In this document: positions 6,847 to 58,264 of the stretch, piece after piece
Layout: the number at the start of each line of letters is the position of its first letter
Position numbering within the stretch: the first letter of the stretch is position 1
Assembly (NCBI GenBank): GCA_963814195.1
Contig: CAWFBU010000008.1
Span: 19,659 to 83,658 of the forward strand
Source of the DNA: an uncultured Acidobacteriaceae bacterium
GTDB lineage: Bacteria; Acidobacteriota; Terriglobia; Bryobacterales; Bryobacteraceae
Length of the DNA stretch: 64,000 nt
Direction: 5' to 3'
Position numbers and translations under genes: made by a program
The notes under the pieces: generated by a model
What the model was told of the DNA's origin: nothing
The model's database searches: none
What the model saw: the letters and a program-made list of their open reading frames with translations, nothing else

Positions 6847-8523
6847 CTACTTACAAAATTCACTCTGTATTCGTCCTGCTATATCTGAGACTTGTAAGGT
6901 GCTCCGCAATTGGCTTCCCAGGTTTGCGGCGTCCGCTCCCAACTGTATGTCGTTTGTGTTCGTAGGTGTGCCTTCGTACCGCTCCCACAGACTAGCTATC
7001 TGCCAACCAGCTATAGATCGATAGTGGTAGCCTAGCTGAAAAAATGCTGCGAAATGATGGCCTTGGTCTTGATCGGGTCTTATAGAATCTTGATAATTGG
7101 GTTTAAACCCCGAGGGATTCCCGCTGCTTCCACCCGGATTTCCAAGATAGACTGGACTTTGGACGCCCTCTAAGCCAGGAGCGCGGATAGTGAACGTCAT
7201 ACCAGGAGCGACGGTGATTACCTTCCTTACAGGAGGGTGTAGGAGAGAGAAAGCAGATACAAATTTGTCTTCGTTGGTTCCGATGTACGTTGCGGCAGCT
7301 TGAGCAAACGAAGCAAGAGCGTTACAATCGTTTCCGTTCGGCGTACCTACCGAGAAGTTCGCCAAATCTCTCAGTTTGATGTAGAGCTGCTGAAGCGGAG
7401 TTACATTTGGAATACTGTACGGATGAGCGGAACCGAAATCGTAGACATAGCCGCAAAAGCCCTCGGGATCATCAAAATAGCAGCCCTAATCGCTCGAAAC
7501 ACCGTAAGAGTAGAACGGGTTGAAGAATTCACCGGCGACTTCAGTAGCGCCTCTTGAGGCGCTACTAAGAAATGGGGGCATGTTTAAGTTGCCAGTCGGT
7601 TCGCTGGCAGTAATCCTTAAAGGAAGCGATATTAAGTTATATGTGTAATCGGTAGGGTCAGAGTCTTTATCATAGTTCGTGAGGCGGTGCAGGCTAAAAC
7701 TTTGGTAATTGCTACTTCCTGATAGGACATGTAGTTCGACCTTTCCTGATCCGCCACCCCATCCTTAAATCCCCACTACATCGGGTACGCCATCATAGTC
7801 GAAATCACGAACCGTAAAACTTGTGTTCTGATATGCGCCTGTGAATGGAGTAGCGGCATTAAGCAAAAAGCTCTGGAAGTTATTTGATCCATCTAATACG
7901 TGAATCGTGACATCCCCCGCATCGTCGTTTTCTTGAACCGTGGCAAATAGATCCAAAATGCCGTCTCCATTGTAATCAGCCATGCTGTAAGTTACAGTTT
8001 CCTGAAAACTCGGAGCGTAAGGTGTTCCCGCGTGAACAATAAAATCCTGATAATTGCCTGCTCCAGAAAGAACATGAACTTCGACGCTAATCGATGAACC
8101 ATTAGGGCGGTCAGGAATACAGACTAGGTCCGGAATCCCATCTTTGTCAACATCAGCCATGACATAACGTACGCTGTTATCTGAGACTGCAGGCCAAGCG
8201 GTTGAGACGTGTGTCAGCCATTGTTGAAAGTTCGTGTACCCCGAAAGGGCATGGATCTCTACATAGGGAACTCCGTTCGTCTTCACGGCAACGAGGTCAG
8301 GGAGACCATCAGAGTCGTAATCAATCATAGATAAGCTAAAGTGCGTGGGGTCGCCGTAAGCCTCGAGAGGAGTGCCGACTGATAGGGTCACGCCCTGGTA
8401 ATTACTCGCAAAATCGGCGATATGAACCTCTGAGTTCGAGGTATTGTTGTGCTTCAAAGCGGGCCGCGGGAGTAGATCCTGCCAAACATTGGCTGGAATT
8501 CGGATACAAAGAGAATCGGCCAC
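6847..8523 (-). pseudogene. FG-GAP/VCBS-type repeat protein with an unknown C-terminal domain, interrupted by two in-frame stops
   Basis: ORFs 7765..8523 and 6847..7365 and the stretch between them share one frame. In-frame TAA lies at 7767-7765 and TAG at 7488-7486. The repeat 'VE[VIL]H[VA]L[SD]G..N[YF]Q.[FW]' plus 'D.D.DG.PD[LV]V' occurs on both sides of the TAA. Confidence 0.75.
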
Positions 8524-39431: not shown

Positions 39432-40925
39432 TCACATTAAAGAATTCTGCATGACGGAGAGCGGAGCGGCTTCGCCGGTCCAAATCTCAAACTGACGGGC
39501 TGCCTGTTCCAGCAGCATATCAATCCCATGAATGACGGTGCAGCCTTGGGCTTTGGCGTTTTTCAGCAGCTCGGTTTCATGGGGGTTGTACACCATATCG
39601 AGGACAATGCCGGCGGGGATCTTGTCGGGGAAGAGGGAACTGGTGAGGTCAGGAGCCATGCCGACTGGCGTGGCATGAACGAGAACGTCGTAGTGCTGGG
39701 CGACCGCATCGGCGAGCGACACGGCATCGGATCGAACCGAGCGTGCGAGCAGTTGAGCACGGCGCAGGTCGCGGCCGGTGATGGTGACGCGTGCACCGGC
39801 ATCGCAAAGAGCGAAGGCCGCAGCCCGGGCGGCGCCCCCATAACCGGCGATGAGGACGGAGGCATGTGGCAGGCGGAGATGACGCTGCAAGGGCTTCAAG
39901 ACTCCTTCGGTATCGGTGTTGGTACCGCGCCACTTACCGGCCTTTCGCCAGACGGTGTTGACTGCGCCGATTCGCTTGGCCAGCGGTTCGACCGCATCGA
40001 GATAGCGGAGAATGCGCTGCTTGTGGGGAATGGTCACGCTGAAGCCACAGACGGGCAGCGCCCCTGCCAGCTTCATCCATTCTCCAAGGTAGGAGGGCGG
40101 CACCAGGAACGGCAGATACACCGCATCTAGGCGGCGGGAATGGAAGCTGCGGTTGTGGATGAGAGGGCTCTTGGTATGGGAGACGGGGTCGGCGATGATG
40201 CCGTAAAGACGCGTCTGCGAAGTCAGCTTGTCACAGCGATAGAGGCTGCGCATGACCTTGCTGGAGAGCTGGCCGGGAGCGGTGCCAGCGAGATCCGCGG
40301 GCGCGGCATAGGTGTAGCGACAACCCATGCTGGGTCCGAGAATGCGGGTGGCGGTGCCGCCTTCGGACATACCTAATGCAATGAGCGGAAGAGTGAGTGA
40401 ACTCTCACGAATGAATTGGATGATGCGCAGGGTATCGCCGGGCTTGCGAACGGTGGTGACAACTTTGTAGCCGTCTGCCGGTATCTTCTGCAGACGGCGG
40501 CTGATGGATTGTAAAGCAGGTGTACCTACAAAATCGTGGAAAGAGAGGATGAGGGCGCAGCGTTCACGGAGAACAGCGGCTTCGGCGGCAGCAGGTTCCG
40601 CCGATTCGATCTCAAGATCCGCAGCGAAAGCGCCTGCCTCGGCCGCTGCTTTTAGGAGAATGACCTGTTGCGAGATAGGGCCTTTGAACCCACCGTGATT
40701 ATCACGATGCCGGCACGTCGCTAAGATGTGTGCGTCGGGATGCTTGTTGATGAAACTTCGGATCAGCTTTAAGCCGGACGCAGGGACATCGAGATGGTCG
40801 AGCCGGAACTCGAGGAATAGATTGCCGTCCTTGTATTCGCTTTCGGCAGACTTCGCTAATTGGTCGGTCGTCGGGAAGCCTAGCGCCACACAGATGCGAG
40901 GCAATGAGCGAGGTAGCAGCGCCAT
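39432..40925 (-). CDS. bifunctional type I 3-dehydroquinate dehydratase / shikimate dehydrogenase (AroD-AroE fusion)
   Basis: The N-terminal half 'ICVALG...LFLEFRLDHL' is DHQase-I-like. The C-terminal half is AroE-like, with 'YGIIADPVSHTKSPLIHNRSF', 'GFSVTIPHK' and 'GYGGAARAAAFAL'. Confidence 0.8.
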   Translation of the reverse strand: MALLPRSLPRICVALGFPTTDQLAKSAESEYKDGNLFLEFRLDHLDVPASGLKLIRSFINKHPDAHILATCRHRDNHGGFKGPISQQVILLKAAAEAGAFAADLEIESAEPAAAEAAVLRERCALILSFHDFVGTPALQSISRRLQKIPADGYKVVTTVRKPGDTLRIIQFIRESSLTLPLIALGMSEGGTATRILGPSMGCRYTYAAPADLAGTAPGQLSSKVMRSLYRCDKLTSQTRLYGIIADPVSHTKSPLIHNRSFHSRRLDAVYLPFLVPPSYLGEWMKLAGALPVCGFSVTIPHKQRILRYLDAVEPLAKRIGAVNTVWRKAGKWRGTNTDTEGVLKPLQRHLRLPHASVLIAGYGGAARAAAFALCDAGARVTITGRDLRRAQLLARSVRSDAVSLADAVAQHYDVLVHATPVGMAPDLTSSLFPDKIPAGIVLDMVYNPHETELLKNAKAQGCTVIHGIDMLLEQAARQFEIWTGEAAPLSVMQNSLM

Positions 40926-41005: not shown

Positions 41006-41758
41006 TTACTGGATGCCGCCGGCGAGGACCAGTGTCTGTCCGGTAACCCATCCAGCATCGTTCGAAGCAAAAAAGACGGCAGCGCGAGCAATCTCTTCGG
41101 GACGCCCGATGCGGTTACCGAGTGGGGTGCGTGACTCGATAGAACGACGGAAATCACTCTCTGCAAAGCCGGCCGTGTGGATACCTTCGGTTTCGATCAT
41201 GCCGGGGTTGAGCGAATTCACACGAATCTTCTTCGGTCCAAGTTCCTGGGAGAGCGATACTGTGATGGCGTCAACGGCTGCTTTAGTGGCGCTGTAGACC
41301 GAGCCTGTTGCGGTGGGGCGGACGCCTACGATGGAACTGATGTTGATGATGGAGCCGCCTTCGGGTCCCATAAATTTGACCGCTTCCTGGGTGGTGAGCA
41401 GCAGACCGAGGACGTTCAGATCAAATTGCTTGTGAAAGTGATCCGGGGTGATGTGTTCGAGCGGTGCGAACTCATAGATACCAGCGTTGTTCACAAGGAT
41501 GTCCAACTTTCCCTAGGCGGAAATCGTATCGGCAAAGAGGCGGCGGATGTCTTCAGGTTTGGAGACGTCGCTTTGTATCGCGGTTGCCTTTCCGCCGGCC
41601 TTGGTGATGCGGGCAACTACGGCGTCCGCGCCTGTTTTGCTGCTGGCGTAGTTGACAACCACCGATGCTCCCTCGGCGGCCAGATGTTCAGCGATAGAGG
41701 CACCGATTCCTTTGGAGGCACCCGTTACAACAGCCACTTTTCCCTGTAATTTGCTCAT
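41006..41758 (-). pseudogene. SDR-family oxidoreductase (FabG-like) with one in-frame TAG
   Basis: '[14 protein letters not shown]' ... 'FADTISA*GKLDILVNNAG' ... 'YSATKAAV'. The TAG at 41515-41513 sits where SDRs have [FY] before 'GKLD'. Both halves are in the same frame. Confidence 0.8.
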
Positions 41759-41830
41759 GATCTTTCCTTTCGATAGTTCGACAACTGTCTAAAGGATGTG
41801 GCGGGCTTATGGCGGGATTCAAGCTGTGAT

Positions 41831-42133
41831 TCAAATGGAGTGTAGTTCGGCCAGGTAGGCGCTCCAGATGGCTCGATTCACAGTGGCATTCAGGAATTTG
41901 CCGTTGCGGGTGATTTCGATTAAGTGAGCTGACTCGAGTTCCTTTAAGTGATGGGAGAGGGTGGGGGCTGTAATGCTACAGCCTTCGCGGAGATGTTGGC
42001 AGGACACATCAGCGTTACCGGCGATCTGGCGGAAGATTTGAAAGCGCCGGGGATCGGCGAGCACTTTGGAGATAGCTTGAATTTCACGACTGGATAAGGA
42101 ACCTACCTCAGCAACTTTCGCGTGCTCGGCCAA
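41831..42133 (-). CDS. ArsR/SmtB-family transcriptional regulator
   Basis: The ArsR-type HTH pattern is 'LADPRRFQIFRQIAGNADVSCQHLREGCSITAPTLSHHLKELESAHLI'. Confidence 0.8.
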   Translation of the reverse strand: MAEHAKVAEVGSLSSREIQAISKVLADPRRFQIFRQIAGNADVSCQHLREGCSITAPTLSHHLKELESAHLIEITRNGKFLNATVNRAIWSAYLAELHSI

Positions 42134-42214
42134 GACCTATTGTCGTATACAGGAAGAGAAAGGCTTGGCTCCAATACCTTGGTCGCTCGGAGGTAGGCCT
42201 TTCTCAAGTTTGGA

Positions 42215-45200
42215 TTAGAAAGTAAAATGAGCTGTCAGCTGCATTCTACGAGAGTTACTACTGTAGAACTGAGAGAAGTTACCGAAGAGAGGGTCGCTGG
42301 CGACCAGGTCGTTGCGAGCGGTTGTATAACTATTTGTTCCGACATCACTCGTGTAGCCACCTGTGAATTGTGAATGATTCAGAACGTTATAGGCTTGAGC
42401 GCCGATGCTGAATTGAACTCTTTCATTGAAGTTGAACTTCTTGCTGAGCGCCAAATCGATGTTGTTGGTCGGGGCTAAGGGGAAGTTATTCCGTCCGCTG
42501 TTGGCGAGCGCGCCCTGACCGGCTACGACGAATCGAGCATTCGGATTATTCGCCACGTAGGCCACGATGGAACTACTACCTGCGGCGACAGCCCGGCCGG
42601 CCGCGTTGTAACCAGTTACCCCACTCCCAACGCTGAATTGCCCGCTGGGGTTGACAATTGTTCGATCACCGGCGCTGTCGCCGTTCAAATTCGAGTCAAT
42701 ACCGCTCTGAACGGTTGCGTATTCAGGTGTCTCATATGTATACGTGCCGGAGATATTCCAGTTTCCAACCAGGTTCCTCAAAAACCAGTTGCCGTTTTTG
42801 AATGGTTGGAAGTCGTAAATAGGAGTAAATGTGAATCGATGCCGATGATCGAGAGCTGAAGAGGCCCATTCTGATTTCAGATTTTGGAAATCCTGCGCTC
42901 GGCGGGGACTCAGGTAAGTCGAAAAGTTTGTTGCGGTCGCATCGTCCAGCACATGACTCCAGGTATAAGCCGCGATAAACGAAAGGTTATTACTGAATCG
43001 TTTCGTGAGCGTATTCTGCCATCCGTTATACGTCGACGTTCCCTGGGGAGCATAGCCCACGATGTTAGATTGTGACCCGTAAACAGCCAAATCATTCGTT
43101 GGATAGGCGGCCGTACCTCCCGGCACGATATAAGTTTTGACCTGTTGCAGAGTTTTTGTTAGGGAAGCGAGAGTAGCGGCCGAAGGTAGCGTGAAGTATG
43201 TGGGAATGTAGTTTGCCGGATTAACTTTAGGGTAGATGTTCAGGCGGGTCTGATTCCACAAGTGCACGCCCCGGGTTCCGACGTATCGGGTTTCGAAAGT
43301 ATAGTCCTTGTGGAACACATGTTGAACACCGAGGTTCCAATCAAGGCCATAAGGACGCTTGTTGCTAAAAGTGTAAGAACTTACCGGACCTAAGGCAGCA
43401 GCCTGGGTCGTGGGAAGCGGGCTTGGAGTTCCAGACAGGCCACCGCGGGCCAAGAAATTAGGTGCGTTCGACGTAAGGTCTGCATCAGCGGTCTGTTGAA
43501 AATAGGGCGGAGCAGCATTCGCAGATAGATTGCCGTATACCAAATCGAAAGAGCGAGCGAACCCGCCGCGAATTGACCAAGCGCCCGAAGTTCCTGGCGA
43601 ATACGCGAAGCCCAGGCGAGGGGACCAGTCGTTCGGACTGAAGGAGGGTTTACCAATCTGAAAGACCCCCGGGACACTTGCCACCGCACTTGCTGCTTGA
43701 TAACGGGACACCACAGGCTCAGAGACATATTCGTAGCGGACACCCAGGTTAACCGTGAAGTGCGGCGTTAGCCGAATGTCGTCGTTGAAGAAGGCCTCAT
43801 TCTGCAGAAAGCCAACTGGATAACTTCCAGTGGGGGAAACGCTTCGCTCTCCAAGCACATCGGGAGTCAAGTCCTGGAGGTATTGTTGAAGTGAATTGTA
43901 CTCGTAATTACCTGTGAGTCTTTGAATGAAGTAGTTGGTGATGATCACATCGGTGAAGTGATAACCAAACTTCAAAGTATGTTTGCCCAAGACAGCGACC
44001 ATGTTGTCCTGAAACTGGGCCAAGTTCTGGATCGAGCCAGTCGGGCCGGGCGGTCCAATGGTCAGACTGTTGAGCTCATCGATCGTGATCACCGGGAAGA
44101 CTCCGCCCAAGCCTGGGAAGCTCTGTGTCGCACCAGGTGCGGAGTTCACGTTGCGGCTAAAGGACGCACGGAATTCATTCTGTAAAAGAGGGCTGAAGTT
44201 ATGAAATTCCGACACGGAGCCAAACTGATTCGTGTTTGGATAAGGCACGGAAAACACCGGGTCTTGAGCAGCTAAGGTTTTATCCTGTTTGTTGTAGATG
44301 TACCTGCCGCGGATTTGGTCCTTTTGACTCAAGTTGTAATCAATGGCGATGACGGCGTCGTAGCTTGTTTGATGAAGTGTATTCGGGAAAGACACGCTAC
44401 CGAGCGGAATACCAACACCGCTTACCGTTGCTGACGTCCCGTTCGAGGTAGCAGCTGCGGGAAGATAAGTCTGTAACTGGCTCAGGTTAGTCTTGCTCAA
44501 GCCGGGGATGCTATTAAGCAAGGAGTAGCCAGCAGCGGTCGGAGCGACCAGCGGGGTGCCACTCAAATTCGTGTACGAATACGGATCATACTCGAAGTTG
44601 CCAAAGTAGAACAGCTTGTCTTTGATGATTGGTCCACCAATGGTGGCCCCGAGGCGATTGTTGTCAAACCGTGGGTTTGATCGATAACCAGAAACGACAG
44701 CGTTCGCGTCCACTGCATTCAAGTTGCGATTCTGGAAGTACTCGTAGATTGAGCCGTGAACAGCGTTCCCGCCACTTTTGACAACCGCATTGAAAATACC
44801 GCCGGATCCGCCTCCAAACTCCGGGCTAAATTGATTCTGAAGGAGAGAGATCTCCGCAACAGACTCATTGGAGGTGTACACGAGCGGACCGGTGTTGAAG
44901 GTATCGTTATTGTTGACGCCGTCCAGGGTGAAGGAGTTATTCTCCGGACGCTGACCGGAAATGGAAGGTCCAGTACCCTGGCCCACGCCGCCCTGCGAAG
45001 TCACACCTGCGCCGATCAGACTCAGGTTCCAGATGCCCGCTCCTCCGCTGAGAGCGGCGCTGGGAAGGGTCTGTATCTGTTGTGCCTCGAACGTGGTCTG
45101 CAGTTGCGCGGTGGTGGTATCGATGACAGCTCCCGCAGAGCTGACCTCCACAGTCGTTGCAGTGGAGCCAAGTTCCAATGTGAGATTTGCCGTAACTACA

Positions 45201-45511
45201 CTGCTCAAAGAGACGCTCACACCGCGCAGGGTCGCATTGGAGAAGCCCTTAGCTACGGCTGCGATCGTGTAGCTGCCAACTGGCAGGTTCGGCAAACGAT
45301 ACGAGCCTTCTGAATTAACAGTAGCGGTGGTTTTCACGCCCGTGGCTTCGTTCGTACCTGTGACGGAGGCTGCAGGCACGGCCGCGCCGGTCTGGTCAGT
45401 AACAATGCCCGTGATATCGCCGCTGACGGCTTGGCCGTAAGCGATTGTTGAGCTTAGTGAAAAAGCTACAGATAGGATGAAAATTATAAATCGTCTTGTA
45501 GAACGAGACAT
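42215..45511 (-). CDS. TonB-dependent receptor with an N-terminal carboxypeptidase-regulatory-like domain
   Basis: An AGGAG box precedes the ATG at 45511. It has the signal peptide MSRSTRRFIIFILSVAFSLSSTIAYGQ and the N-terminal segment 'GIVTDQTGAAVPAASVTGTNEATG...GSYRLPNLPVGSYTIAAVAKGF'. The C-terminus is 'RRMQLTAHFTF*'. Confidence 0.85.
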   Translation of the reverse strand: MSRSTRRFIIFILSVAFSLSSTIAYGQAVSGDITGIVTDQTGAAVPAASVTGTNEATGVKTTATVNSEGSYRLPNLPVGSYTIAAVAKGFSNATLRGVSVSLSSVVTANLTLELGSTATTVEVSSAGAVIDTTTAQLQTTFEAQQIQTLPSAALSGGAGIWNLSLIGAGVTSQGGVGQGTGPSISGQRPENNSFTLDGVNNNDTFNTGPLVYTSNESVAEISLLQNQFSPEFGGGSGGIFNAVVKSGGNAVHGSIYEYFQNRNLNAVDANAVVSGYRSNPRFDNNRLGATIGGPIIKDKLFYFGNFEYDPYSYTNLSGTPLVAPTAAGYSLLNSIPGLSKTNLSQLQTYLPAAATSNGTSATVSGVGIPLGSVSFPNTLHQTSYDAVIAIDYNLSQKDQIRGRYIYNKQDKTLAAQDPVFSVPYPNTNQFGSVSEFHNFSPLLQNEFRASFSRNVNSAPGATQSFPGLGGVFPVITIDELNSLTIGPPGPTGSIQNLAQFQDNMVAVLGKHTLKFGYHFTDVIITNYFIQRLTGNYEYNSLQQYLQDLTPDVLGERSVSPTGSYPVGFLQNEAFFNDDIRLTPHFTVNLGVRYEYVSEPVVSRYQAASAVASVPGVFQIGKPSFSPNDWSPRLGFAYSPGTSGAWSIRGGFARSFDLVYGNLSANAAPPYFQQTADADLTSNAPNFLARGGLSGTPSPLPTTQAAALGPVSSYTFSNKRPYGLDWNLGVQHVFHKDYTFETRYVGTRGVHLWNQTRLNIYPKVNPANYIPTYFTLPSAATLASLTKTLQQVKTYIVPGGTAAYPTNDLAVYGSQSNIVGYAPQGTSTYNGWQNTLTKRFSNNLSFIAAYTWSHVLDDATATNFSTYLSPRRAQDFQNLKSEWASSALDHRHRFTFTPIYDFQPFKNGNWFLRNLVGNWNISGTYTYETPEYATVQSGIDSNLNGDSAGDRTIVNPSGQFSVGSGVTGYNAAGRAVAAGSSSIVAYVANNPNARFVVAGQGALANSGRNNFPLAPTNNIDLALSKKFNFNERVQFSIGAQAYNVLNHSQFTGGYTSDVGTNSYTTARNDLVASDPLFGNFSQFYSSNSRRMQLTAHFTF

Positions 45512-45700
45512 GGCTCTCCTGAGGCAAAAAAGGTTCTCTTTGTCCGTAGGTGGTTCATCCGGTCCAAAGACACGGATCAACAAAGGGACGGATCAACGGA
45601 GATCAATACTGCGGTTACGGTTTAAGCTTGCAACGCTCGTCGAGGAGAAATACTAGCGCTACATGCACAAGACAGACCAGGGTTTGTTTAGCAGCGATGA

Positions 45701-45720
45701 CTAACCAGTTAACTTGTTAG
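45701..45720. promoter_or_regulatory. 18/20 palindrome CTAACcAGTTAACTtGTTAG in the divergent receptor/GH32 promoter region
   Basis: Read directly from the sequence. The half-site-like 'ACTT..GTTAG' recurs at about 45774-45783 and 45804-45814. Confidence 0.35.
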
Positions 45721-45745
45721 TCCGAACTATAACATCGTTCCATTA

Positions 45746-45774
45746 TCGCGACAATCCCAATTTCGCGACAATCC
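45746..45774. repeat. direct repeat TCGCGACAATCC x2 (period 17)
   Basis: Exact 12-mers lie at 45746-45757 and 45763-45774, between the divergent receptor and GH32 genes. Confidence 0.8.
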
Positions 45775-45886
45775 TTAAGTTAGTACCAGAAGGTATCGTG
45801 CGGAACTTAGTTAGACTTTCGGCGCGGCAGGACCCGAGACCCACGGAACCTGGGCGGCGAAGGATCCCGCATACAATCAAGTTGCT

Positions 45887-47434
45887 ATGAAACGGGATTT
45901 CAGCTTCGGACGCTGTGCAGCCTTCTGCTTTGGCCTCAGCATGCTCATGGCAGGATCCGCGCTGCCGGTCTCAGCACAGAATGAGCAATACCGGCCGCAG
46001 TATCATTTTTCGCCGAAAGAACATTGGACGAACGATCCGAATGGCCTGGTTTTCTTCGAGGGTGAGTACCACTTATTTTTTCAGTACAACCCGTTCGGCG
46101 ATAAGTGGGGCCATATGAGCTGGGGCCATGCTGTTACGCAGGACCTGGTGCATTGGACTCAACTACCGGTGGCGTTACCAGAAGAGAATGGCGTGATGAT
46201 CTTCACGGGGAGCACCGTAGTGGACCTGCACAACACGACCGGTTTCTGCCAGAACTCGAAGCCTTGCTTAGTGGCGATTTATACGGGTTATACGCCTGAG
46301 CATGACGGCAAGAAGTCGCTTCAGAACCAGAACATCGCGTATAGTAACGACCGCGGGAGAACCTGGACTAAGTTCAGCGGCAATCCGGTGCTCGACTTGC
46401 ACATGACGGATTTTCGTGATCCGAAGGTGCTTTGGTCTGAAGCGAGCAAGCAGTGGATTATGGCGGTAGCGCTGCCGGACGACCACAAAGTACGGATTTA
46501 TGGCTCAGCGGATCTGAAGAATTGGAAGGAATTGAGCGACTTCGGTCCGGCAGGTGCGACCAGCGGCCAGTGGGAGTGTCCGGAGCTGTTCGAATTGCCC
46601 ATTCAGGATGGTGTCGGGAAGCGATGGGTATTGAAAGTCGGCTTAAACCCGGGTGCCTTACAAGGCGGATCGGGTGAGCAGTACTTTATCGGACAATTCG
46701 ACGGTAAGAAGTTCCTGAATGAAAACCCAGCGTCGCAAACCATGTGGACGGACTACGGAAAAGATTGTTACTGCGGGTTGACCTTCAACAATCTTCCACA
46801 GAGCAAGCCGATGGTGATGATCGGCTGGATGAGTAACTGGCAGTATGCTGCAGACCTGCCGACAGCGCCGTTTCGTGGCCAGATGACTGTACCGCGGAAG
46901 CTGGCGCTGCGGAAGACGGCGGATGGGCTGCGTTTATTGCAGGCGCCAGTCGATGCCGTGGATGCTTTGCGTACGGGCGAGCGAATTACGACCGGTCAGG
47001 ATTTGGCAGCGGTGAACGAGACCTTGGCAAAGACGCCGCTCTCGGCCCAACATTCTTTTGATGTGGAGGCTCAGATTGAGCTTGGTGCTGCTACGGCCGC
47101 CGGTTTGCGCCTAGTCTCCTCCAACGGCGCAGCAGTGGTGATCGGCTATGATGCGCACCAGCAGAGCTTCTCCGTAGATCGCACGAACTCGGGGGTTGTC
47201 AACTTTAACAAGGACTTCCCTGCTCGTGTCGCAGCGCCACTGAAGGTTTCGGGCTCTACTCTGCAGCTGAGAATGCTGGGTGACCGGGATTCTCTGGAAG
47301 TTTTTGCGGATGGAGGGCGAGTAACGATGACCGATCTAGTGTTCGCTCCCCCGGGCAAGCAACACCTCGAGGTATTCGCAACCGGCGGTGCTCTGAAGCA
47401 CATCAGCGTCAAGAGCTGGGACCTGAAGAAGTAA
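45887..47434 (+). CDS. secreted glycoside hydrolase family 32 (beta-fructofuranosidase/levanase-like)
   Basis: It has a signal peptide. The GH32 catalytic blocks are 'HWTNDPNGLVFFEGEYHLFFQYNP', 'FRDPKV' and 'WECPELF'. Confidence 0.9.
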   Translation: MKRDFSFGRCAAFCFGLSMLMAGSALPVSAQNEQYRPQYHFSPKEHWTNDPNGLVFFEGEYHLFFQYNPFGDKWGHMSWGHAVTQDLVHWTQLPVALPEENGVMIFTGSTVVDLHNTTGFCQNSKPCLVAIYTGYTPEHDGKKSLQNQNIAYSNDRGRTWTKFSGNPVLDLHMTDFRDPKVLWSEASKQWIMAVALPDDHKVRIYGSADLKNWKELSDFGPAGATSGQWECPELFELPIQDGVGKRWVLKVGLNPGALQGGSGEQYFIGQFDGKKFLNENPASQTMWTDYGKDCYCGLTFNNLPQSKPMVMIGWMSNWQYAADLPTAPFRGQMTVPRKLALRKTADGLRLLQAPVDAVDALRTGERITTGQDLAAVNETLAKTPLSAQHSFDVEAQIELGAATAAGLRLVSSNGAAVVIGYDAHQQSFSVDRTNSGVVNFNKDFPARVAAPLKVSGSTLQLRMLGDRDSLEVFADGGRVTMTDLVFAPPGKQHLEVFATGGALKHISVKSWDLKK

Positions 47435-47504: not shown

Positions 47505-49061
47505 GTGTCAGGGCAAATTGATCCGTGGCCTGAGTATTGCCGCCGATTAAACAAGCATTACCGGCAGGGCGACTTACGAGTGCTTGCCGGGGCTGGACTT
47601 TCTGTCGATGCCGGATTTCCGAGTTGGGGCGAGCTTAACCAAGCTCTGCTGCGACGGTACATCGAGGATGACCTGGGGCGCGATCCGAAATCGCAGCCAA
47701 TCATTCAACAACATCTGGATGAGCTAGTAGATGAGCTGTACCAGACGATCGGCCGGGAGGCCGCTGCCGACTTCGTTTGGAATTCCAGCACGCGCGAGAA
47801 CTTCTTCGAAGACCTGCGCCAACTTCTTTACGGCGATCGTAGCCTGAAAGATCTTTTTCTCACTCAAGTCCATTGGCAGTTGGCAGCTATGGACAAGGCT
47901 ACGCTGTTTACGACGAACTTCGACCCGCTGCTGGAACTGGCCCGCTACCGGGTACGGGGCGGCACCTCCGATGACCCGGACCTTCATATGTTCCGTTCGG
48001 CAAATCCACCAGCGGATCGATCGGAACCGGATACGAATCGCGTTTACCACGTGCATGGCTGGATCGATCCGGATGGGATCTGCGGCGGTTCTTTTGTCCT
48101 GACCGAATCACAGTATTTCGAGTTGTTCAGCCGGCAGGGCCAACGACCGAACCAGATGCTGGAGTATGCGCTGACATCGGGCGGCGCAGTTTTGATTCTG
48201 GGCATGAGCCTGGCGGACGTTAATCTGAGGCGGCACCTCTACCTACGTTCGCTTAGCCGCATCTCGGACTCGACAGAAATCTATGCTGTGCTGCGCGTGC
48301 ATGACCGCCGACTGCTGGACACATACCAGACCTTACATTGGGCTAATCGCGGCGTGCGCCTGATCTATGTAGAGGATTATGATGGCATTCCGAAGATGCT
48401 GCGGGAGATTAAATTCGGTCTGCCGACAAAGCCCGGCGCACCGCTCCCATGGATGACGGAAACGTATAAGTGGACGCAAAGCCACTTGCCGCAAAGCCTC
48501 ATCTTTACTGATGCATGGCAAGATCGGGCCTGCAAGATTCTTCGCCGGGTGGCCGCAGGTTTCCGTGAAAGCTTCGCGGTTCCCCAACAAGAGACGATCA
48601 ACCTGACCTTGATGGGCCAGATTGCAGAAGATCGCATTGCCTCGTTTGCGGAGAGCCGGAAACAATATACGGGCGCGGCAGCAGAAGAGTATGCGGCGAG
48701 ATTCCAACTGTTAGTAGGTCAAAGCGCGCAAGGGATTACAGGCAATGCCTTCTCAAAAGGACGCGCCATTGAGGTGCTGGACGACCCGGACCTAGCTGAT
48801 GAAAATTTCACACCGGAGATGAAGCAGCAATATATTCAAAGACGCCGAACTTGGCGCTCATTGCTGGCTGTTCCCTATCTGGAGACCAGCGATCGTCTGC
48901 CTGTGTTGGTGATCTCGGTCACATCTAACCTGAACGAACCATTCTGGATACGGTTCGGGGCCAAGAAGCAGGCCTATCGAGACGAATTAAATCAGGCATT
49001 AGAACTGACGGTACGAGAAATTCTAAGTATTTCTATACATCGAGCTGTTGGTTCGCCCTAG
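47505..49061 (+). CDS. SIR2_2-type (ThsA/DSR-like) domain fused to a GAF-like C-terminal domain
   Basis: GTG start. The SIR2_2 landmarks are 'LRVLAGAGLSVDAGFPSWGELNQAL', 'TLFTTNFDPLLE', 'RVYHVHGW' and 'AVLILGMSLADVNL'. The C-terminal segment is 'GITGNAFSKGRAIEVLDDPDLADENF...WRSLLAVPYLETSDRLPVLVISVTSNLNEPF'. Confidence 0.7.
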   Translation: MSGQIDPWPEYCRRLNKHYRQGDLRVLAGAGLSVDAGFPSWGELNQALLRRYIEDDLGRDPKSQPIIQQHLDELVDELYQTIGREAAADFVWNSSTRENFFEDLRQLLYGDRSLKDLFLTQVHWQLAAMDKATLFTTNFDPLLELARYRVRGGTSDDPDLHMFRSANPPADRSEPDTNRVYHVHGWIDPDGICGGSFVLTESQYFELFSRQGQRPNQMLEYALTSGGAVLILGMSLADVNLRRHLYLRSLSRISDSTEIYAVLRVHDRRLLDTYQTLHWANRGVRLIYVEDYDGIPKMLREIKFGLPTKPGAPLPWMTETYKWTQSHLPQSLIFTDAWQDRACKILRRVAAGFRESFAVPQQETINLTLMGQIAEDRIASFAESRKQYTGAAAEEYAARFQLLVGQSAQGITGNAFSKGRAIEVLDDPDLADENFTPEMKQQYIQRRRTWRSLLAVPYLETSDRLPVLVISVTSNLNEPFWIRFGAKKQAYRDELNQALELTVREILSISIHRAVGSP

Positions 49062-49079
49062 AATAGTTCAAGAGAATTC

Positions 49080-49271
49080 ATGGGCAAGTTGACCTGGGAA
49101 GAAGCTGAAGCACTTGTAGAACGGGCACACAATCCGTTTCCGGACTTACATCCTTCCATGCGGATCATACCTGGGACAACACACGTGAGTAACCCGAATT
49201 CGGAATTTGCGCGGGAATTCCTACGGAAAATTAGGCAAAGAGTGCCGGATTCCGAGCCTCAGGAGCGTTAG
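49080..49271 (+). CDS. 63-aa hypothetical protein downstream of the SIR2-like gene
   Basis: ATG-initiated ORF 18 nt after the SIR2-like stop. No recognisable domain. Coding status is unproven. Confidence 0.35.
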   Translation: MGKLTWEEAEALVERAHNPFPDLHPSMRIIPGTTHVSNPNSEFAREFLRKIRQRVPDSEPQER

Positions 49272-49306: not shown

Positions 49307-50371
49307 ATGGCAAACCCAATAGTTTTCGACCTACTTTCTCCTTTTCTTCTCCTTCTTCTGTTAGTAACTCCTTCTTACGACGCTGTGCCGAACTTGACTG
49401 AGCGGATTGTTCGCTTACTTACAGCAGCTAGGGAACGAGGGCACATCACTCCTGTCCTTTCGCCGATGGATGGCATGCTACAGGGACCCAATGCTCTCGA
49501 CACGGCGGCCGTACAGCGGGCAGGCTTCCCGGTTGTGGTCTGGACGGTGAACGATCCACAGCGCATGCGGGCATTGCTGAAGATCGGTGTGGACGGAATC
49601 ATCTCAGACCGGCCGGATTTACTGCGAAAAGAAGCAGGCAGCGCCAGTAAGAGGATCGATGTCGAAGGGCACCGCGGAGGCCGCGACTTGCGACCGGAAA
49701 ACACGTTGCCGGCATTTGAATCGGGCCTGGACAATCTCATTACGACCATCGAAACGGATACGGGCGTGACGAGGGATCATTTTTCCCTGATCAGCCATGA
49801 ACAGTTTCTGAATCCACAGACCTGCCGGGCGGCGGACGGGAGCCCGTATGCAGAGGCCAACAAGATCTGGATTCGAGACATCGAGATGGCGGAGGCGGCG
49901 AAACGATTTATCTGCGATAAGACCTTCCGGGGACCGCAGCAAAAGAATGATCTGGCGTTGTCGCCTGTCGCGGTGGCGTACGCCCGGGAGCACGGCATGA
50001 TAAGTCCCTATGCGCCAACGAGTGCCGGGCAGCTTTTCGATTTTGTGGCGTTCTATGTGACGTATTACCGGCACGGATCAGGACGATCGAACCCCGCCGC
50101 CGAGGTTCGGGCAGCAAATGCGGAGAAGGTTCGATTCAATCTGGAGACCAAAATCACTCCGCAAGCCGAGCGCGAAGGTCATACGTTCAGTGCTGAGGTG
50201 TTTACCGAGACACTGGCCAGTACGATTCGAGCGCATCATATGGAAGCACGCGCCGATATCCAAAGCTTCAACTTCCGAACTCTGGAATTAGTGGAGAGAC
50301 GTTTTCCTCAGATTCGAACCGTATACCTGATGGAGAATGCGCAGGCTTTGCAGCAAGTGCCTGAGCCCTAG
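49307..50371 (+). CDS. glycerophosphodiester-phosphodiesterase-family ORF with permuted segment order
   Basis: 'GFPVVVWTVNDPQRMRALLKIGVDGIISDRPDLL' is normally the C-terminal end of the GDPD barrel. Here it precedes 'IDVEGHRGGRDLRPENTLPAFESGLD..IETD', the N-terminal catalytic block, and 'FNLETK...IQSFNFRTLE'. Confidence 0.6.
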   Translation: MANPIVFDLLSPFLLLLLLVTPSYDAVPNLTERIVRLLTAARERGHITPVLSPMDGMLQGPNALDTAAVQRAGFPVVVWTVNDPQRMRALLKIGVDGIISDRPDLLRKEAGSASKRIDVEGHRGGRDLRPENTLPAFESGLDNLITTIETDTGVTRDHFSLISHEQFLNPQTCRAADGSPYAEANKIWIRDIEMAEAAKRFICDKTFRGPQQKNDLALSPVAVAYAREHGMISPYAPTSAGQLFDFVAFYVTYYRHGSGRSNPAAEVRAANAEKVRFNLETKITPQAEREGHTFSAEVFTETLASTIRAHHMEARADIQSFNFRTLELVERRFPQIRTVYLMENAQALQQVPEP

Positions 50372-56527: not shown

Positions 56528-58264
56528 ATGCTCCTGGAGCTGATAGTCGAAAATTATGCGGTTGTGGAGCAGGCCCGCATCCGATTCGGTCCGGGCTTAA
56601 CGGTTCTAACGGGAGAGACGGGCAGTGGCAAATCGATTGTTGTTGACTCGTTGAATTTACTTCTGGGGGCCCGCGCATCGGCGGAGATGATCCGAAGCGG
56701 AGAAACGAGGGCGCGGGTATCGGGCATCTTCTCGATCGCTAACACCCCGGAACTGCAGTCGCTTCTTGAAGAGGCGGGGATCAGCCGGGAAGACGAGGAA
56801 GAACTGATTGTGGAGCGGGAGGTGGCGGCGAACGGGAAATCGCGCGCCTTCGTCGTGAATCGGCCGGTTACAACGGCATTTCTCCGGCAACTAGCCCCTG
56901 CCCTTGGTGATATCCACGGACAGAACGAGCAGCAATCCCTGTTCGCCTCGCGATCGCAGCGCATTGTACTGGACGATTATGCTCATGCGGAGCGGTTACG
57001 GGCAGAGGTGACGCGCGTCTATTTAGACTGGCGGGCAGCCGGCGAAAAACTGCAGGATCTGAGCAGGAACGAACAGGAAAAGATTCGCCTGTTGGATCTC
57101 TGGACCTTCCAGAGCAAAGAGATTGCGGCCGTGAATCCGAAGCCCGGTGAAGACGCGGCTTTGGAAGCAGAGCGAAAGATTTTGCAGAATGTTACACGGC
57201 TGCAGGAAAGTTCGAACGCCGCCTACTCCCTGCTCTATGATGCGCCGGAGAGCGCGAGCACGCAGTTGCGTCAAGCGGCAAAACGATTGGATGAACTGCT
57301 GCGCATCGACGAAAGTCTGGCTAGCGTTGCGGACCAGATGAAGCAAGCGTCCGTACTGCTGGAAGAAGCGACGTACGGTTTGCGCGACTATGTCGGGAAA
57401 CTGGAAGGCGATCCGGACCGCCTGGAGGATGTGGAGAGCAGGCTGGAAGCTCTCGACAAGTTGAAGCGGAAGTATGGCGGAACGCTGGAAGAGGTCGTGG
57501 CCTTCGGGATGGAGGCGGCGCGCAAAGCGGATGAAGTGGAGAATGTGGCGCAACATCGTGCCTCAATCGAGAAGCAGCAAGCTGCGCTGGCGGCAGAATA
57601 TGAGCGCCTTGCCGGCGATCTTCATTCGGTAAGAGTCGCTGCAGCAGAAAAGCTGAGCAAGCAAGTTGAAACCGAATTGAAATCACTGGCCATGGGTGGG
57701 ACAGCTTTTCGGGTGTCAGTCGAGCGAGGCGAGTGGGGACCGAACGGCTTCGATGAAGTGGGATTCCTTGTTTCGCCGAATCGAGGAGAAGAGCTGAAGC
57801 CGCTGGAGAAGATTGCTTCGGGCGGCGAACTTTCGCGGATTTCACTGGCCCTGAAGACAGCGACCGGAGACACGGACCAGAATACGGGCGTGATGACGAT
57901 GGTGTTCGACGAAGTGGATGCGGGAGTGGGCGGGGCGGCCGCAGCTGCGGTAGGGCGACGCTTGAAGGCGCTGTCGCGAAAAAACCAAGTGATCTGCGTG
58001 ACACACACAGCGCAGATAGCCGGCTTTGCCGATCATCACCTCGCAGTGGCAAAGCGAGAGCGCAAAGGCCGGGTAACGACGGAGATTTCAGAGCTGCCAC
58101 GCGAGGAGCGAGCACGCGAAATAGGCCGTATGCTTTCCGGCGAGGAAATTACGCCCGAAGCACTGCGCCAAGCCGAACAGCTGATGCAAGCCGGGTCTAC
58201 TGAGCTAATTCTCGCTGATCGAAATCAAAAAGTCCGCAAATTCGGGCAGAACGCGCGACCATAG
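56528..58264 (+). CDS. recN: DNA repair protein RecN
   Basis: 578 aa with an uninterrupted frame. It has the Walker A motif 'LTGETGSGKS', long coiled coils, and the C-terminal segments 'GGELSRISLAL' and 'VFDEVDAGVGG'. Confidence 0.9.
   Translation: MLLELIVENYAVVEQARIRFGPGLTVLTGETGSGKSIVVDSLNLLLGARASAEMIRSGETRARVSGIFSIANTPELQSLLEEAGISREDEEELIVEREVAANGKSRAFVVNRPVTTAFLRQLAPALGDIHGQNEQQSLFASRSQRIVLDDYAHAERLRAEVTRVYLDWRAAGEKLQDLSRNEQEKIRLLDLWTFQSKEIAAVNPKPGEDAALEAERKILQNVTRLQESSNAAYSLLYDAPESASTQLRQAAKRLDELLRIDESLASVADQMKQASVLLEEATYGLRDYVGKLEGDPDRLEDVESRLEALDKLKRKYGGTLEEVVAFGMEAARKADEVENVAQHRASIEKQQAALAAEYERLAGDLHSVRVAAAEKLSKQVETELKSLAMGGTAFRVSVERGEWGPNGFDEVGFLVSPNRGEELKPLEKIASGGELSRISLALKTATGDTDQNTGVMTMVFDEVDAGVGGAAAAAVGRRLKALSRKNQVICVTHTAQIAGFADHHLAVAKRERKGRVTTEISELPREERAREIGRMLSGEEITPEALRQAEQLMQAGSTELILADRNQKVRKFGQNARP

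Follow-up and report, generated by a model that had tools for sequence, protein, structure and literature searches.

A SIR2_2-GAF fusion protein and its small partner as a rare two-gene module in an uncultured Acidobacteriaceae bacterium

We analysed a stretch of 64,000 nucleotides from an uncultured Acidobacteriaceae bacterium (assembly GCA_963814195.1, contig CAWFBU010000008.1, positions 19,659 to 83,658), referred to below as the window, and describe here two adjacent genes on its plus strand. The first (47505..49061) opens with a GTG start and encodes a protein of 518 aa, here called SIR2-GAF, in which a SIR2_2-type domain is joined to a divergent GAF-fold domain. An 18-nt spacer (49062..49079), in which an AAGAG Shine-Dalgarno-like element can be read, separates it from a second open reading frame (ORF) of 63 aa (49080..49271) that encodes a small partner protein, type A of those described below. 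Both ORFs lie exactly where a preliminary description of this DNA had placed them. Along the first gene, a SIR2_2-type Rossmann domain with a helical insertion occupies residues ~8-305 (47526..48419), as assigned from PF13289, Foldseek and a PDB sequence match. It carries the GAGLS NAD-binding loop (residues 29-33, 47589..47603) and the codons for the predicted catalytic Asn138 of the TTNFD motif (47916..47918) and the predicted catalytic His184 of the HVHGW motif (48054..48056). A helical linker follows (residues ~306-360, 48420..48584, including the invariant W316), and the GAF-fold domain takes up residues ~361-515 (48585..49049).

The SIR2-GAF gene and the small gene constitute a real, rare two-gene module. 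Both are under purifying selection, and the SIR2-GAF protein is kept at full length in 24 homologues (alignment A1, which holds 25 homologues; the wider family alignment is referred to as A3). An AlphaFold2 (AF2) model of the 518-aa protein, built from the 25 homologues, reached a predicted local distance difference test score (pLDDT) of 89.4 and a predicted template modelling score (pTM) of 0.88. In the public annotation this protein, P0001 (493 aa, 100% identity over 95% of the query), appears to begin about 25 residues later than the GTG at 47505. Since the 25 N-terminal residues missing from that call (47505-47579) are conserved in homologues and modelled with a confident helix at residues 8-20, we consider the GTG at 47505 to be the better start. 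No terminator-like site was found between the SIR2-GAF gene and the 63-aa gene, and promoter and terminator scans gave the same counts as in shuffled sequence.

The N-terminal half of the protein reads as a CATALYTICALLY intact SIR2_2 domain. Residues 133-285 score 61.4 bits (E 1.3e-16) with the Pfam SIR2_2 profile (PF13289), whose cutoff is 24.5, and the SIR2 motifs that the preliminary description had quoted are present in the right order. Its expectation that the catalytic Asn and His would be conserved among homologues was borne out as well, with N138 retained in 61 and H184 in 60 of the 64 family members that have a SIR2 region. G29/A30/G31/S33, T136/N138/D140, H182/H184/G185 and G233-N240 are invariant among the 25 homologues of A1, and of the 60 A3 rows spanning the loop, 54 have GAGS. 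Across the family, the predicted catalytic and NAD-binding residues are retained in about 94% of members.

Comparisons with known proteins led to antiphage enzymes. PADLOC returned moderate matches confined to the SIR2 part, the best being ThsA (3e-12), followed by LmuA and a weak match to Dsr1 (6e-4), while NCBIfam had no match for the SIR2-GAF protein. In a PDB sequence search the closest solved structure was KomC of Kongming (8zsf, 3e-7). In that alignment TTNFD pairs with TTNYD and HVHGW pairs with F-H146-G, which makes H184 the counterpart of KomC H146, the residue mutated in PDB 9xvc ("KomC(H146N), a SIR2-domain NADase"). The best PDB folds for the AF2 model in Foldseek were DSR2 (6.9e-11), ThsA from three species and KomC, with E ~1e-10 and a probability of 1.00. 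All characterised SIR2_2 relatives recovered are antiphage NADases, and the nearest structures are ligand- or partner-activated. The classical sirtuin deacylase profile PF02146 did not match the 518-aa protein at E<=1, and the protein contains only three scattered cysteines (12, 193, 343), so that it is not a zinc-ribbon sirtuin deacylase. By analogy with its characterised relatives, we infer that the SIR2 domain is a predicted NAD+ hydrolase.

The C-terminal domain (CTD) was harder to place. Pfam GAF, GAF_2 and GAF_3 gave no match at E<=10 for four CTDs, those of the window protein and three distant relatives, and a PDB profile search of the CTD found nothing beyond 3o5y ("Sensor protein") at E 0.68. 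When modelled alone (residues 310-518, 21 sequences), the CTD reached a pLDDT of 90.6, and Foldseek returned 41 PDB matches at E<=1e-3, nearly all of them GAF domains. These include the tandem GAF of CyaB2 (1ykd, 1.5e-5), free Met-R-sulfoxide reductase (fRMsr), the PtsP GAF, NreA, PDE2/5/6 and phytochromes, and PDE6-P-gamma complexes are also among them. An exhaustive CTD profile search of 1.84 billion representatives matched 116 proteins. Its marginal matches include a canonical tandem-GAF protein, P0139 (4e-4), and a 12xGAF protein, P0137 (1e-4), repeat proteins being prone to inflated scores, and one true family member, P0127, reaches GAF_2 at E 0.0068. A fold search was thus needed to call a GAF domain, since sequence profiles alone cannot do so. 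The preliminary description had read the C-terminus as GAF-like; fold and reverse profile search uphold this reading, whereas a significant Pfam GAF match did not materialise. In GAF domains a six-stranded antiparallel sheet is packed against helices, and on the strength of the model we accept the CTD as a divergent GAF domain at the level of predicted fold, with a weak sequence bridge.

In the AF2 model the GAF domain is flanked by the helical linker (residues 316-356) and by a long C-terminal helix (485-514). The linker is resolved into helices 316-327, 330-333 and 336-356 with pLDDT >90, and W316 is invariant in A1. Conserved CTD positions comprise Q409-G410-x-x-G413 at a helix N-terminus, N434-F435, R448-x-W450-R451-S452, P466, S474-N475 and P479-F480-W481, corresponding to the motifs QGxxG, NF, RxWRS and TSN...PFW. 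These positions would line a candidate pocket, in which the QGxxG helix cap and the RxWRS arginines would suit an anionic, nucleotide-like ligand.

Conservation of the 518-aa and 63-aa genes as a unit, an expectation of the preliminary description, holds without exception in the close clade: at each of the 15 loci whose sequence continues beyond the SIR2-GAF stop, the 63-aa ORF lies directly downstream with 42-84% identity. Its ratio of nonsynonymous to synonymous substitution rates (dN/dS) is 0.02-0.17 within subclades, with dS near saturation, and since this indicates purifying selection the 63-aa ORF is not a chance ORF. The protein evolves faster than the enzyme, showing 42-55% identity where the enzyme shows 64-69%. 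Beyond the close clade, too, a small ORF on the same strand lies 10-60 nt behind each catalytically intact family member that was sampled. These partners are 87-118 aa long in the Angelobacter/Terriglobia clade, 73 aa at L018 and about 69 aa in Nannocystales; those behind P0028, P0025, P0091 and P0065 measure 89, 100, 80 and 65 aa, respectively.

The small partners fall into at least three sequence types. Type B resembles type D (BLAST 3e-4, in a tiny database), and the type C partner recurs with a distantly related SIR2-GAF gene at L051 (hhalign 92%, E 6e-7). Most are basic, with pI 8-11. The 63-aa ORF had been described as having no recognisable domain, and indeed neither it nor the other small partner ORFs matched anything in Pfam, PADLOC or NCBIfam, Pepco included. 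Most likely, the small protein serves the enzyme as an inhibitor or adaptor subunit. In PDE6, a small polycationic inhibitory subunit, P-gamma, binds the GAF domain, and this offers a possible analogy for the small partner.

The family is rare: a set of 5.8 billion proteins holds 28 clusters of it when grouped at 90% identity, and one of 1.84 billion holds about 100 when grouped at 50%. SIR2_2 is carried by 62 of the 67 long CTD-profile matches, which suggests that this GAF-like domain is essentially dedicated to fusion with SIR2_2. Named sources are metagenome-assembled genomes (MAGs) of Acidobacteriota (Bryobacteraceae/Bryobacterales, "Acidobacteriaceae", Terriglobia and Candidatus Angelobacter) and, in Myxococcota, Nannocystales; most other members are metagenome proteins. 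PADLOC, NCBIfam and Pfam contain no model or named system with a SIR2-GAF architecture, and the searchable literature yielded no paper on defence or NADases in which SIR2 and a GAF domain are combined, in agreement with the preliminary description, which knew of no named system built in this way. The SIR2_2-GAF fusion, its small partner gene and the catalytically dead branch linked to CHAT and Pepco, described next, are undescribed in the resources searched.

One distant member of the family, P0028 (31% identity), sits in a defence-like island. Its neighbours are a second, ThsA-like SIR2 (1e-30), proteins resembling DarG and HD/dGTPase enzymes, a NACHT NTPase and a PIN toxin-antitoxin pair. 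In this neighbourhood, on the same contig as the SIR2-GAF family member (L044, 612-3200), we observed a tight operon in which a stand-alone ThsA-like SIR2 of 314 aa is joined by proteins of 139 and 403 aa, the larger with a weak GAF_2 match. We considered this operon as an unfused, "Rosetta-stone" version of the fusion and rejected the idea, because hhalign gave its GAF protein a probability of 0.3% against the CTD.

A second kind of context is found with homologues that have lost their predicted catalytic residues. The motifs have decayed in P0057, a homologue of 663 aa that matches over its full length (hhalign 100%, E 1.4e-52): it has GGELS for GAGxS, TVAHD for TTNFD and HIFGW for HVHGW. 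A CHAT protease and Pepco (PF24393, 8e-17) follow it, with stop and start overlapping. In P0033, H184 is replaced by Asn, and a CHAT gene and a 68-aa ORF lie downstream. The dead homologues at L049 (275-4176) and at the P0033 locus are 644-663 aa long and have an extra C-terminal extension of ~150 aa; the CHAT protease encoded in their operons is accompanied by Pepco (117 aa) or by a small ORF, and these homologues may represent a new sensor class for protease-Pepco modules. Pepco is a protease-activated, pore-forming death effector that is coupled to diverse sensors in antiviral defence (PMC12642450). The CHAT-linked dead variants look as though the sensor scaffold was kept while its effector was exchanged, and such exchange is a hallmark of conflict systems. 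A general rule that a dead SIR2 is always CHAT-linked was rejected: it holds for P0033 and P0057 and fails for P0086 and P0087, which are catalytically dead and have neither CHAT nor a downstream small ORF. (P0040 was left out of this comparison because a contig end cuts it.) The loci of these last two dead members, L053 (6001-7581) and L054 (6001-7563; substitutions N138A, and N138Q with H184Q), are the only sampled ones without a small partner, because a convergent gene starts 2-16 nt after the stop. P0025, P0065, P0086 and P0087 sit among ordinary genes. In this small sample, defence neighbours were seen at L044 and with the CHAT-Pepco variants and not at L046, L051, L053, L054 or in the window clade.

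Taken as a whole, we hold the chances to be evenly balanced that the pair is a sensor-gated, NAD+-depleting conflict module, which makes this the likeliest of the explanations considered. On this model a SIR2_2-family NAD+ hydrolase effector would be held inactive by its fused divergent GAF sensor domain, and its gene would be co-transcribed with that of a small, fast-evolving, usually basic partner protein. A signal arriving through the GAF domain, the small protein or both would relieve the inhibition, by analogy with ThsA, DSR2 and KomBC, and probably through a change of oligomeric state. The freed SIR2 domain would then hydrolyse NAD+ and the cell would arrest. A conflict role is partly supported, the support coming only from distant members of the family.

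A number of results weigh against this interpretation. Among 16 close relatives, 12 share the order AroDE(-) ... SIR2-GAF(+), small gene(+), GDPD(+), CpoB(-), Pal(-), with Tol-Pal and RecN beyond; GDPD is missing from L009, and the short sequences of L011-L013 do not reach the flanks. Identity to the window is 64-80% for SIR2-GAF, 64-70% for AroDE, 64-80% for CpoB, 72-86% for Pal and 58-67% for GDPD, and since the divergence of SIR2-GAF tracks that of these four neighbours we conclude that the pair is inherited vertically. Such synteny and stability are unusual for defence genes. The G+C content of the locus, 0.54-0.56, is the same as in the remaining window, neither the 64-kb window nor the variable stretch ahead of the pair showed a defence gene, and plasmid and phage collections yielded no full-length SIR2-GAF relative. 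No cyclase, TIR or other signal-producing enzyme was found linked to the pair; a cyclic nucleotide as the GAF ligand is possible but, with no synthase linked, unsupported. Among the small partners, hhalign comparisons of types A with B, B with C and A with C gave probabilities of 1% or less, even after type C had been enriched. The pattern of dead variants without a partner rests on n=2. Motifs shared by the partners as seen by eye (PWGL/EWGL, STRD-S) were considered as a sign of homology and rejected on the same hhalign probabilities.

In the window, the pair is a core-like, stably inherited chromosomal locus that lies outside any defence island. Consistent with the absence of TIR/ThsB, HerA, pAgo and SLOG noted in the preliminary description, a PADLOC screen found none of these among the 45 window ORFs of roughly 150 aa or more and the 63-aa ORF. 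The defence role and defence-gene neighbourhood that the same description had envisaged fared unevenly: the syntenic, housekeeping neighbours of the window clade are the opposite of the predicted enrichment, while some distant members, P0028 and the CHAT-Pepco variants, do have such neighbours.

An explanation that follows more closely from the setting of the window's own lineage is that of a housekeeping enzyme, in which a metabolite-sensing GAF domain would regulate an NAD+-consuming SIR2_2 domain (an NADase or ADP-ribosyltransferase) in normal physiology and not in response to invaders, for example in dormancy or nutrient-stress control in slow-growing soil Acidobacteriota. It is specifically for this lineage that the strict synteny and neighbour-like divergence favour it, together with the AroDE, Tol-Pal and RecN flanks free of detected defence genes, the unremarkable G+C and the lack of plasmid or phage copies in the collections searched. 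GAF domains, moreover, classically sense endogenous metabolites and second messengers, and NreA, fRMsr, PtsP and PDEs are among the Foldseek matches. We nevertheless regard this explanation as somewhat unlikely, given that every characterised SIR2_2 relative recovered is an antiphage NADase, that the family is rare and patchy across phyla with mutually unrelated contexts for its distant members, and that dead variants are coupled to CHAT-Pepco death modules. Splits across frames in 3 of the 16 close-clade copies would, if real, also point to dispensability. The obligate small gene behind a short spacer raises a different prospect, that of a toxin-antitoxin-like pair in which a constitutively active NADase toxin would be restrained by a labile small antitoxin and the GAF domain would serve for docking or oligomerisation. 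A mostly basic partner (pI 8-11) that evolves faster than the enzyme yet remains under purifying selection would fit, as would its absence from two dead, non-CHAT variants. This, too, seems unlikely to us: the conserved polar GAF motifs (QGxxG, RxWRS, TSN...PFW) exceed what docking needs when partner sequences are so variable, the small partners have no DNA-binding antitoxin fold or Pfam match that we could find, toxin-first is the less common gene order, and the pattern of absence comes from those two variants only.

The persistence of dead full-length homologues indicates that the scaffold has functions beyond catalysis, and one may therefore ask whether the SIR2-like domain binds NAD or nucleotides as a scaffold without catalysis, the protein being purely a sensor or adaptor as the CHAT-linked relatives appear to be. 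For the window protein this is highly improbable, because its catalytic and NAD-binding residues are complete, as they are in about 94% of the family, and no alternative effector gene is linked in the window. A more elaborate scheme, which we think decidedly unlikely in its entirety, returns to the sensor-gated NAD+-depleting module and casts it as an "orphan receptor" switch for immunity or dormancy. Its GAF domain would read a general or invader-derived nucleotide-like metabolite without a dedicated synthase, and a P-gamma-like small basic inhibitor would reach across both this domain and the active site. In one acidobacterial lineage, domestication would have turned the module into a core, vertically inherited, NAD+-controlled growth-arrest circuit, and its dead scaffold would have been re-wired to CHAT-Pepco pore-forming effectors.

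The genes around the pair are consistent with the flanks named in the preliminary description, a GH32 fructosidase and a rearranged GDPD gene, and Pfam confirms both: the upstream neighbour is a GH32 glycosidase (E 1e-92), and the downstream GDPD gene (49307-50371, +) has a GDPD_2 segment (profile 1-30) at residues 75-104, ahead of the main GDPD match at residues 122-347 (profile 1-172 of 244). This arrangement suggests a circularly permuted or rearranged barrel, the orthologue at L002 is alike, and the protein has a hydrophobic, signal-peptide-like N-terminus. GDPD was considered as a third component of the system and rejected, since it is missing from L009, where the pair is kept, and from distant clades. 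The distance from AroDE to the pair varies from about 50 bp to about 6.5 kb. AroDE directly abuts the SIR2-GAF gene in L002, L006, L007 and L008, and other relatives have efflux, MacB, hydrolase and methyltransferase genes in between. In the window, the stretch of ~6.5 kb at 41006-47434, between AroDE (39432-40925) and the SIR2-GAF gene, encodes a 1122-aa TonB-dependent receptor, the GH32 protein and a short-chain dehydrogenase ORF that matches only profile positions 72-235 and is possibly 5'-truncated, and it resembles a fructan-utilisation cassette inserted at a variable site. At L014, this variable interval holds a partial C-5 cytosine DNA methylase match (6885-7676, profile 2-113 of 324), perhaps left over from a restriction-modification system.

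Two further observations concern automated annotation and assembly. The only strong PADLOC match outside the SIR2 gene was mad3 (1.4e-28) at 56528-58264 (+). We rejected the mad3, LmuB, GajA and AriA matches as defence neighbours, because all of them come from the syntenic RecN-like SMC ATPase at 56528-58264, which is a likely false positive for automated defence finders. Among the 16 close-clade copies, the SIR2-GAF frame is split over two frames in L014 (10001-11645), L016 (10001-11525) and L017 (10001-11534), with breaks near residues 342, 240 and 231-282, respectively. The split copies are either assembly errors or real pseudogenes, and two come from MAG series that may be long-read assemblies.

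NAD+ depletion of the SIR2 type is a major effector strategy in bacterial immunity, and the known systems differ in how the NADase is switched: by SLOG with gcADPR, a phage tail tube, dITP through KomB, pAgo, HerA or STAND. A GAF-gated NADase with an obligate micro-protein would, if true, add a new switching logic, in phyla (Acidobacteriota and Myxococcota) whose defence repertoires are almost unexplored experimentally. Dead paralogues feeding CHAT-Pepco modules amount to a natural experiment on modular effector exchange. The core-like, syntenic copy in the window also prompts the question of whether an effector of the abortive-infection type can become domesticated and serve physiology. With few members, clear limits and known invariant residues, the family lends itself directly to tests of these ideas.

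Among known systems, ThsA of Thoeris has the most similar layout, a single polypeptide of ~480-520 aa with an N-terminal SIR2_2 NADase and a C-terminal sensor-type domain. The sensor of ThsA is SLOG (or Macro), whereas here it has a GAF fold, and the PADLOC ThsA matches cover the SIR2 part only. Near the window pair no ThsB/TIR gene was found and a small downstream partner is present instead, which places the pair outside ThsA. KomC of Kongming is the closest solved structure by sequence, and its catalytic His146 aligns with His184. KomC is a SIR2 effector with nucleotide sensing delegated to another module (PMC13454610). It is a 264-aa, SIR2-only protein that works with KomB (a HAM1-type pyrophosphatase, dITP) and KomA, while the window protein has its sensor fused to it in the form of a GAF domain, with no KomA or KomB genes near the pair.

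DSR2 and DSR1 are likewise single-protein NADases switched by the binding of a trigger, and DSR2 is the top Foldseek match for the SIR2 half. Only the SIR2 part of DSR2 is matched, as seen from the aligned columns (about 340-360 of a 920-1000-residue target) and a target-normalised template modelling (TM) score of ~0.24. In DSR2 a C-terminal region of ~700 aa binds the phage tail tube, while here a GAF domain of ~150 residues follows a helical linker. On the side of the sensor, CyaB2 cyclase and PDE2/5/6 share a GAF domain with flanking long helices fused to a catalytic domain, although the GAF sequence here is too divergent for Pfam GAF models and its catalytic partner is a predicted SIR2 NADase. 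In its small adjacent, co-directional gene conserved with the enzyme gene, the pair resembles type II toxin-antitoxin systems. Protease-Pepco modules are approached by the dead family members P0057 and P0033, which lie directly upstream of CHAT and Pepco or a small ORF, and this suggests that a recognised defence effector module (PMC12642450) draws a sensor from the SIR2-GAF family. Such a module is absent from the window, where the protein keeps its own SIR2 effector and the 63-aa partner has no Pepco match. The window protein itself belongs to the SIR2_2 domain family and, by fold, to the GAF superfamily.

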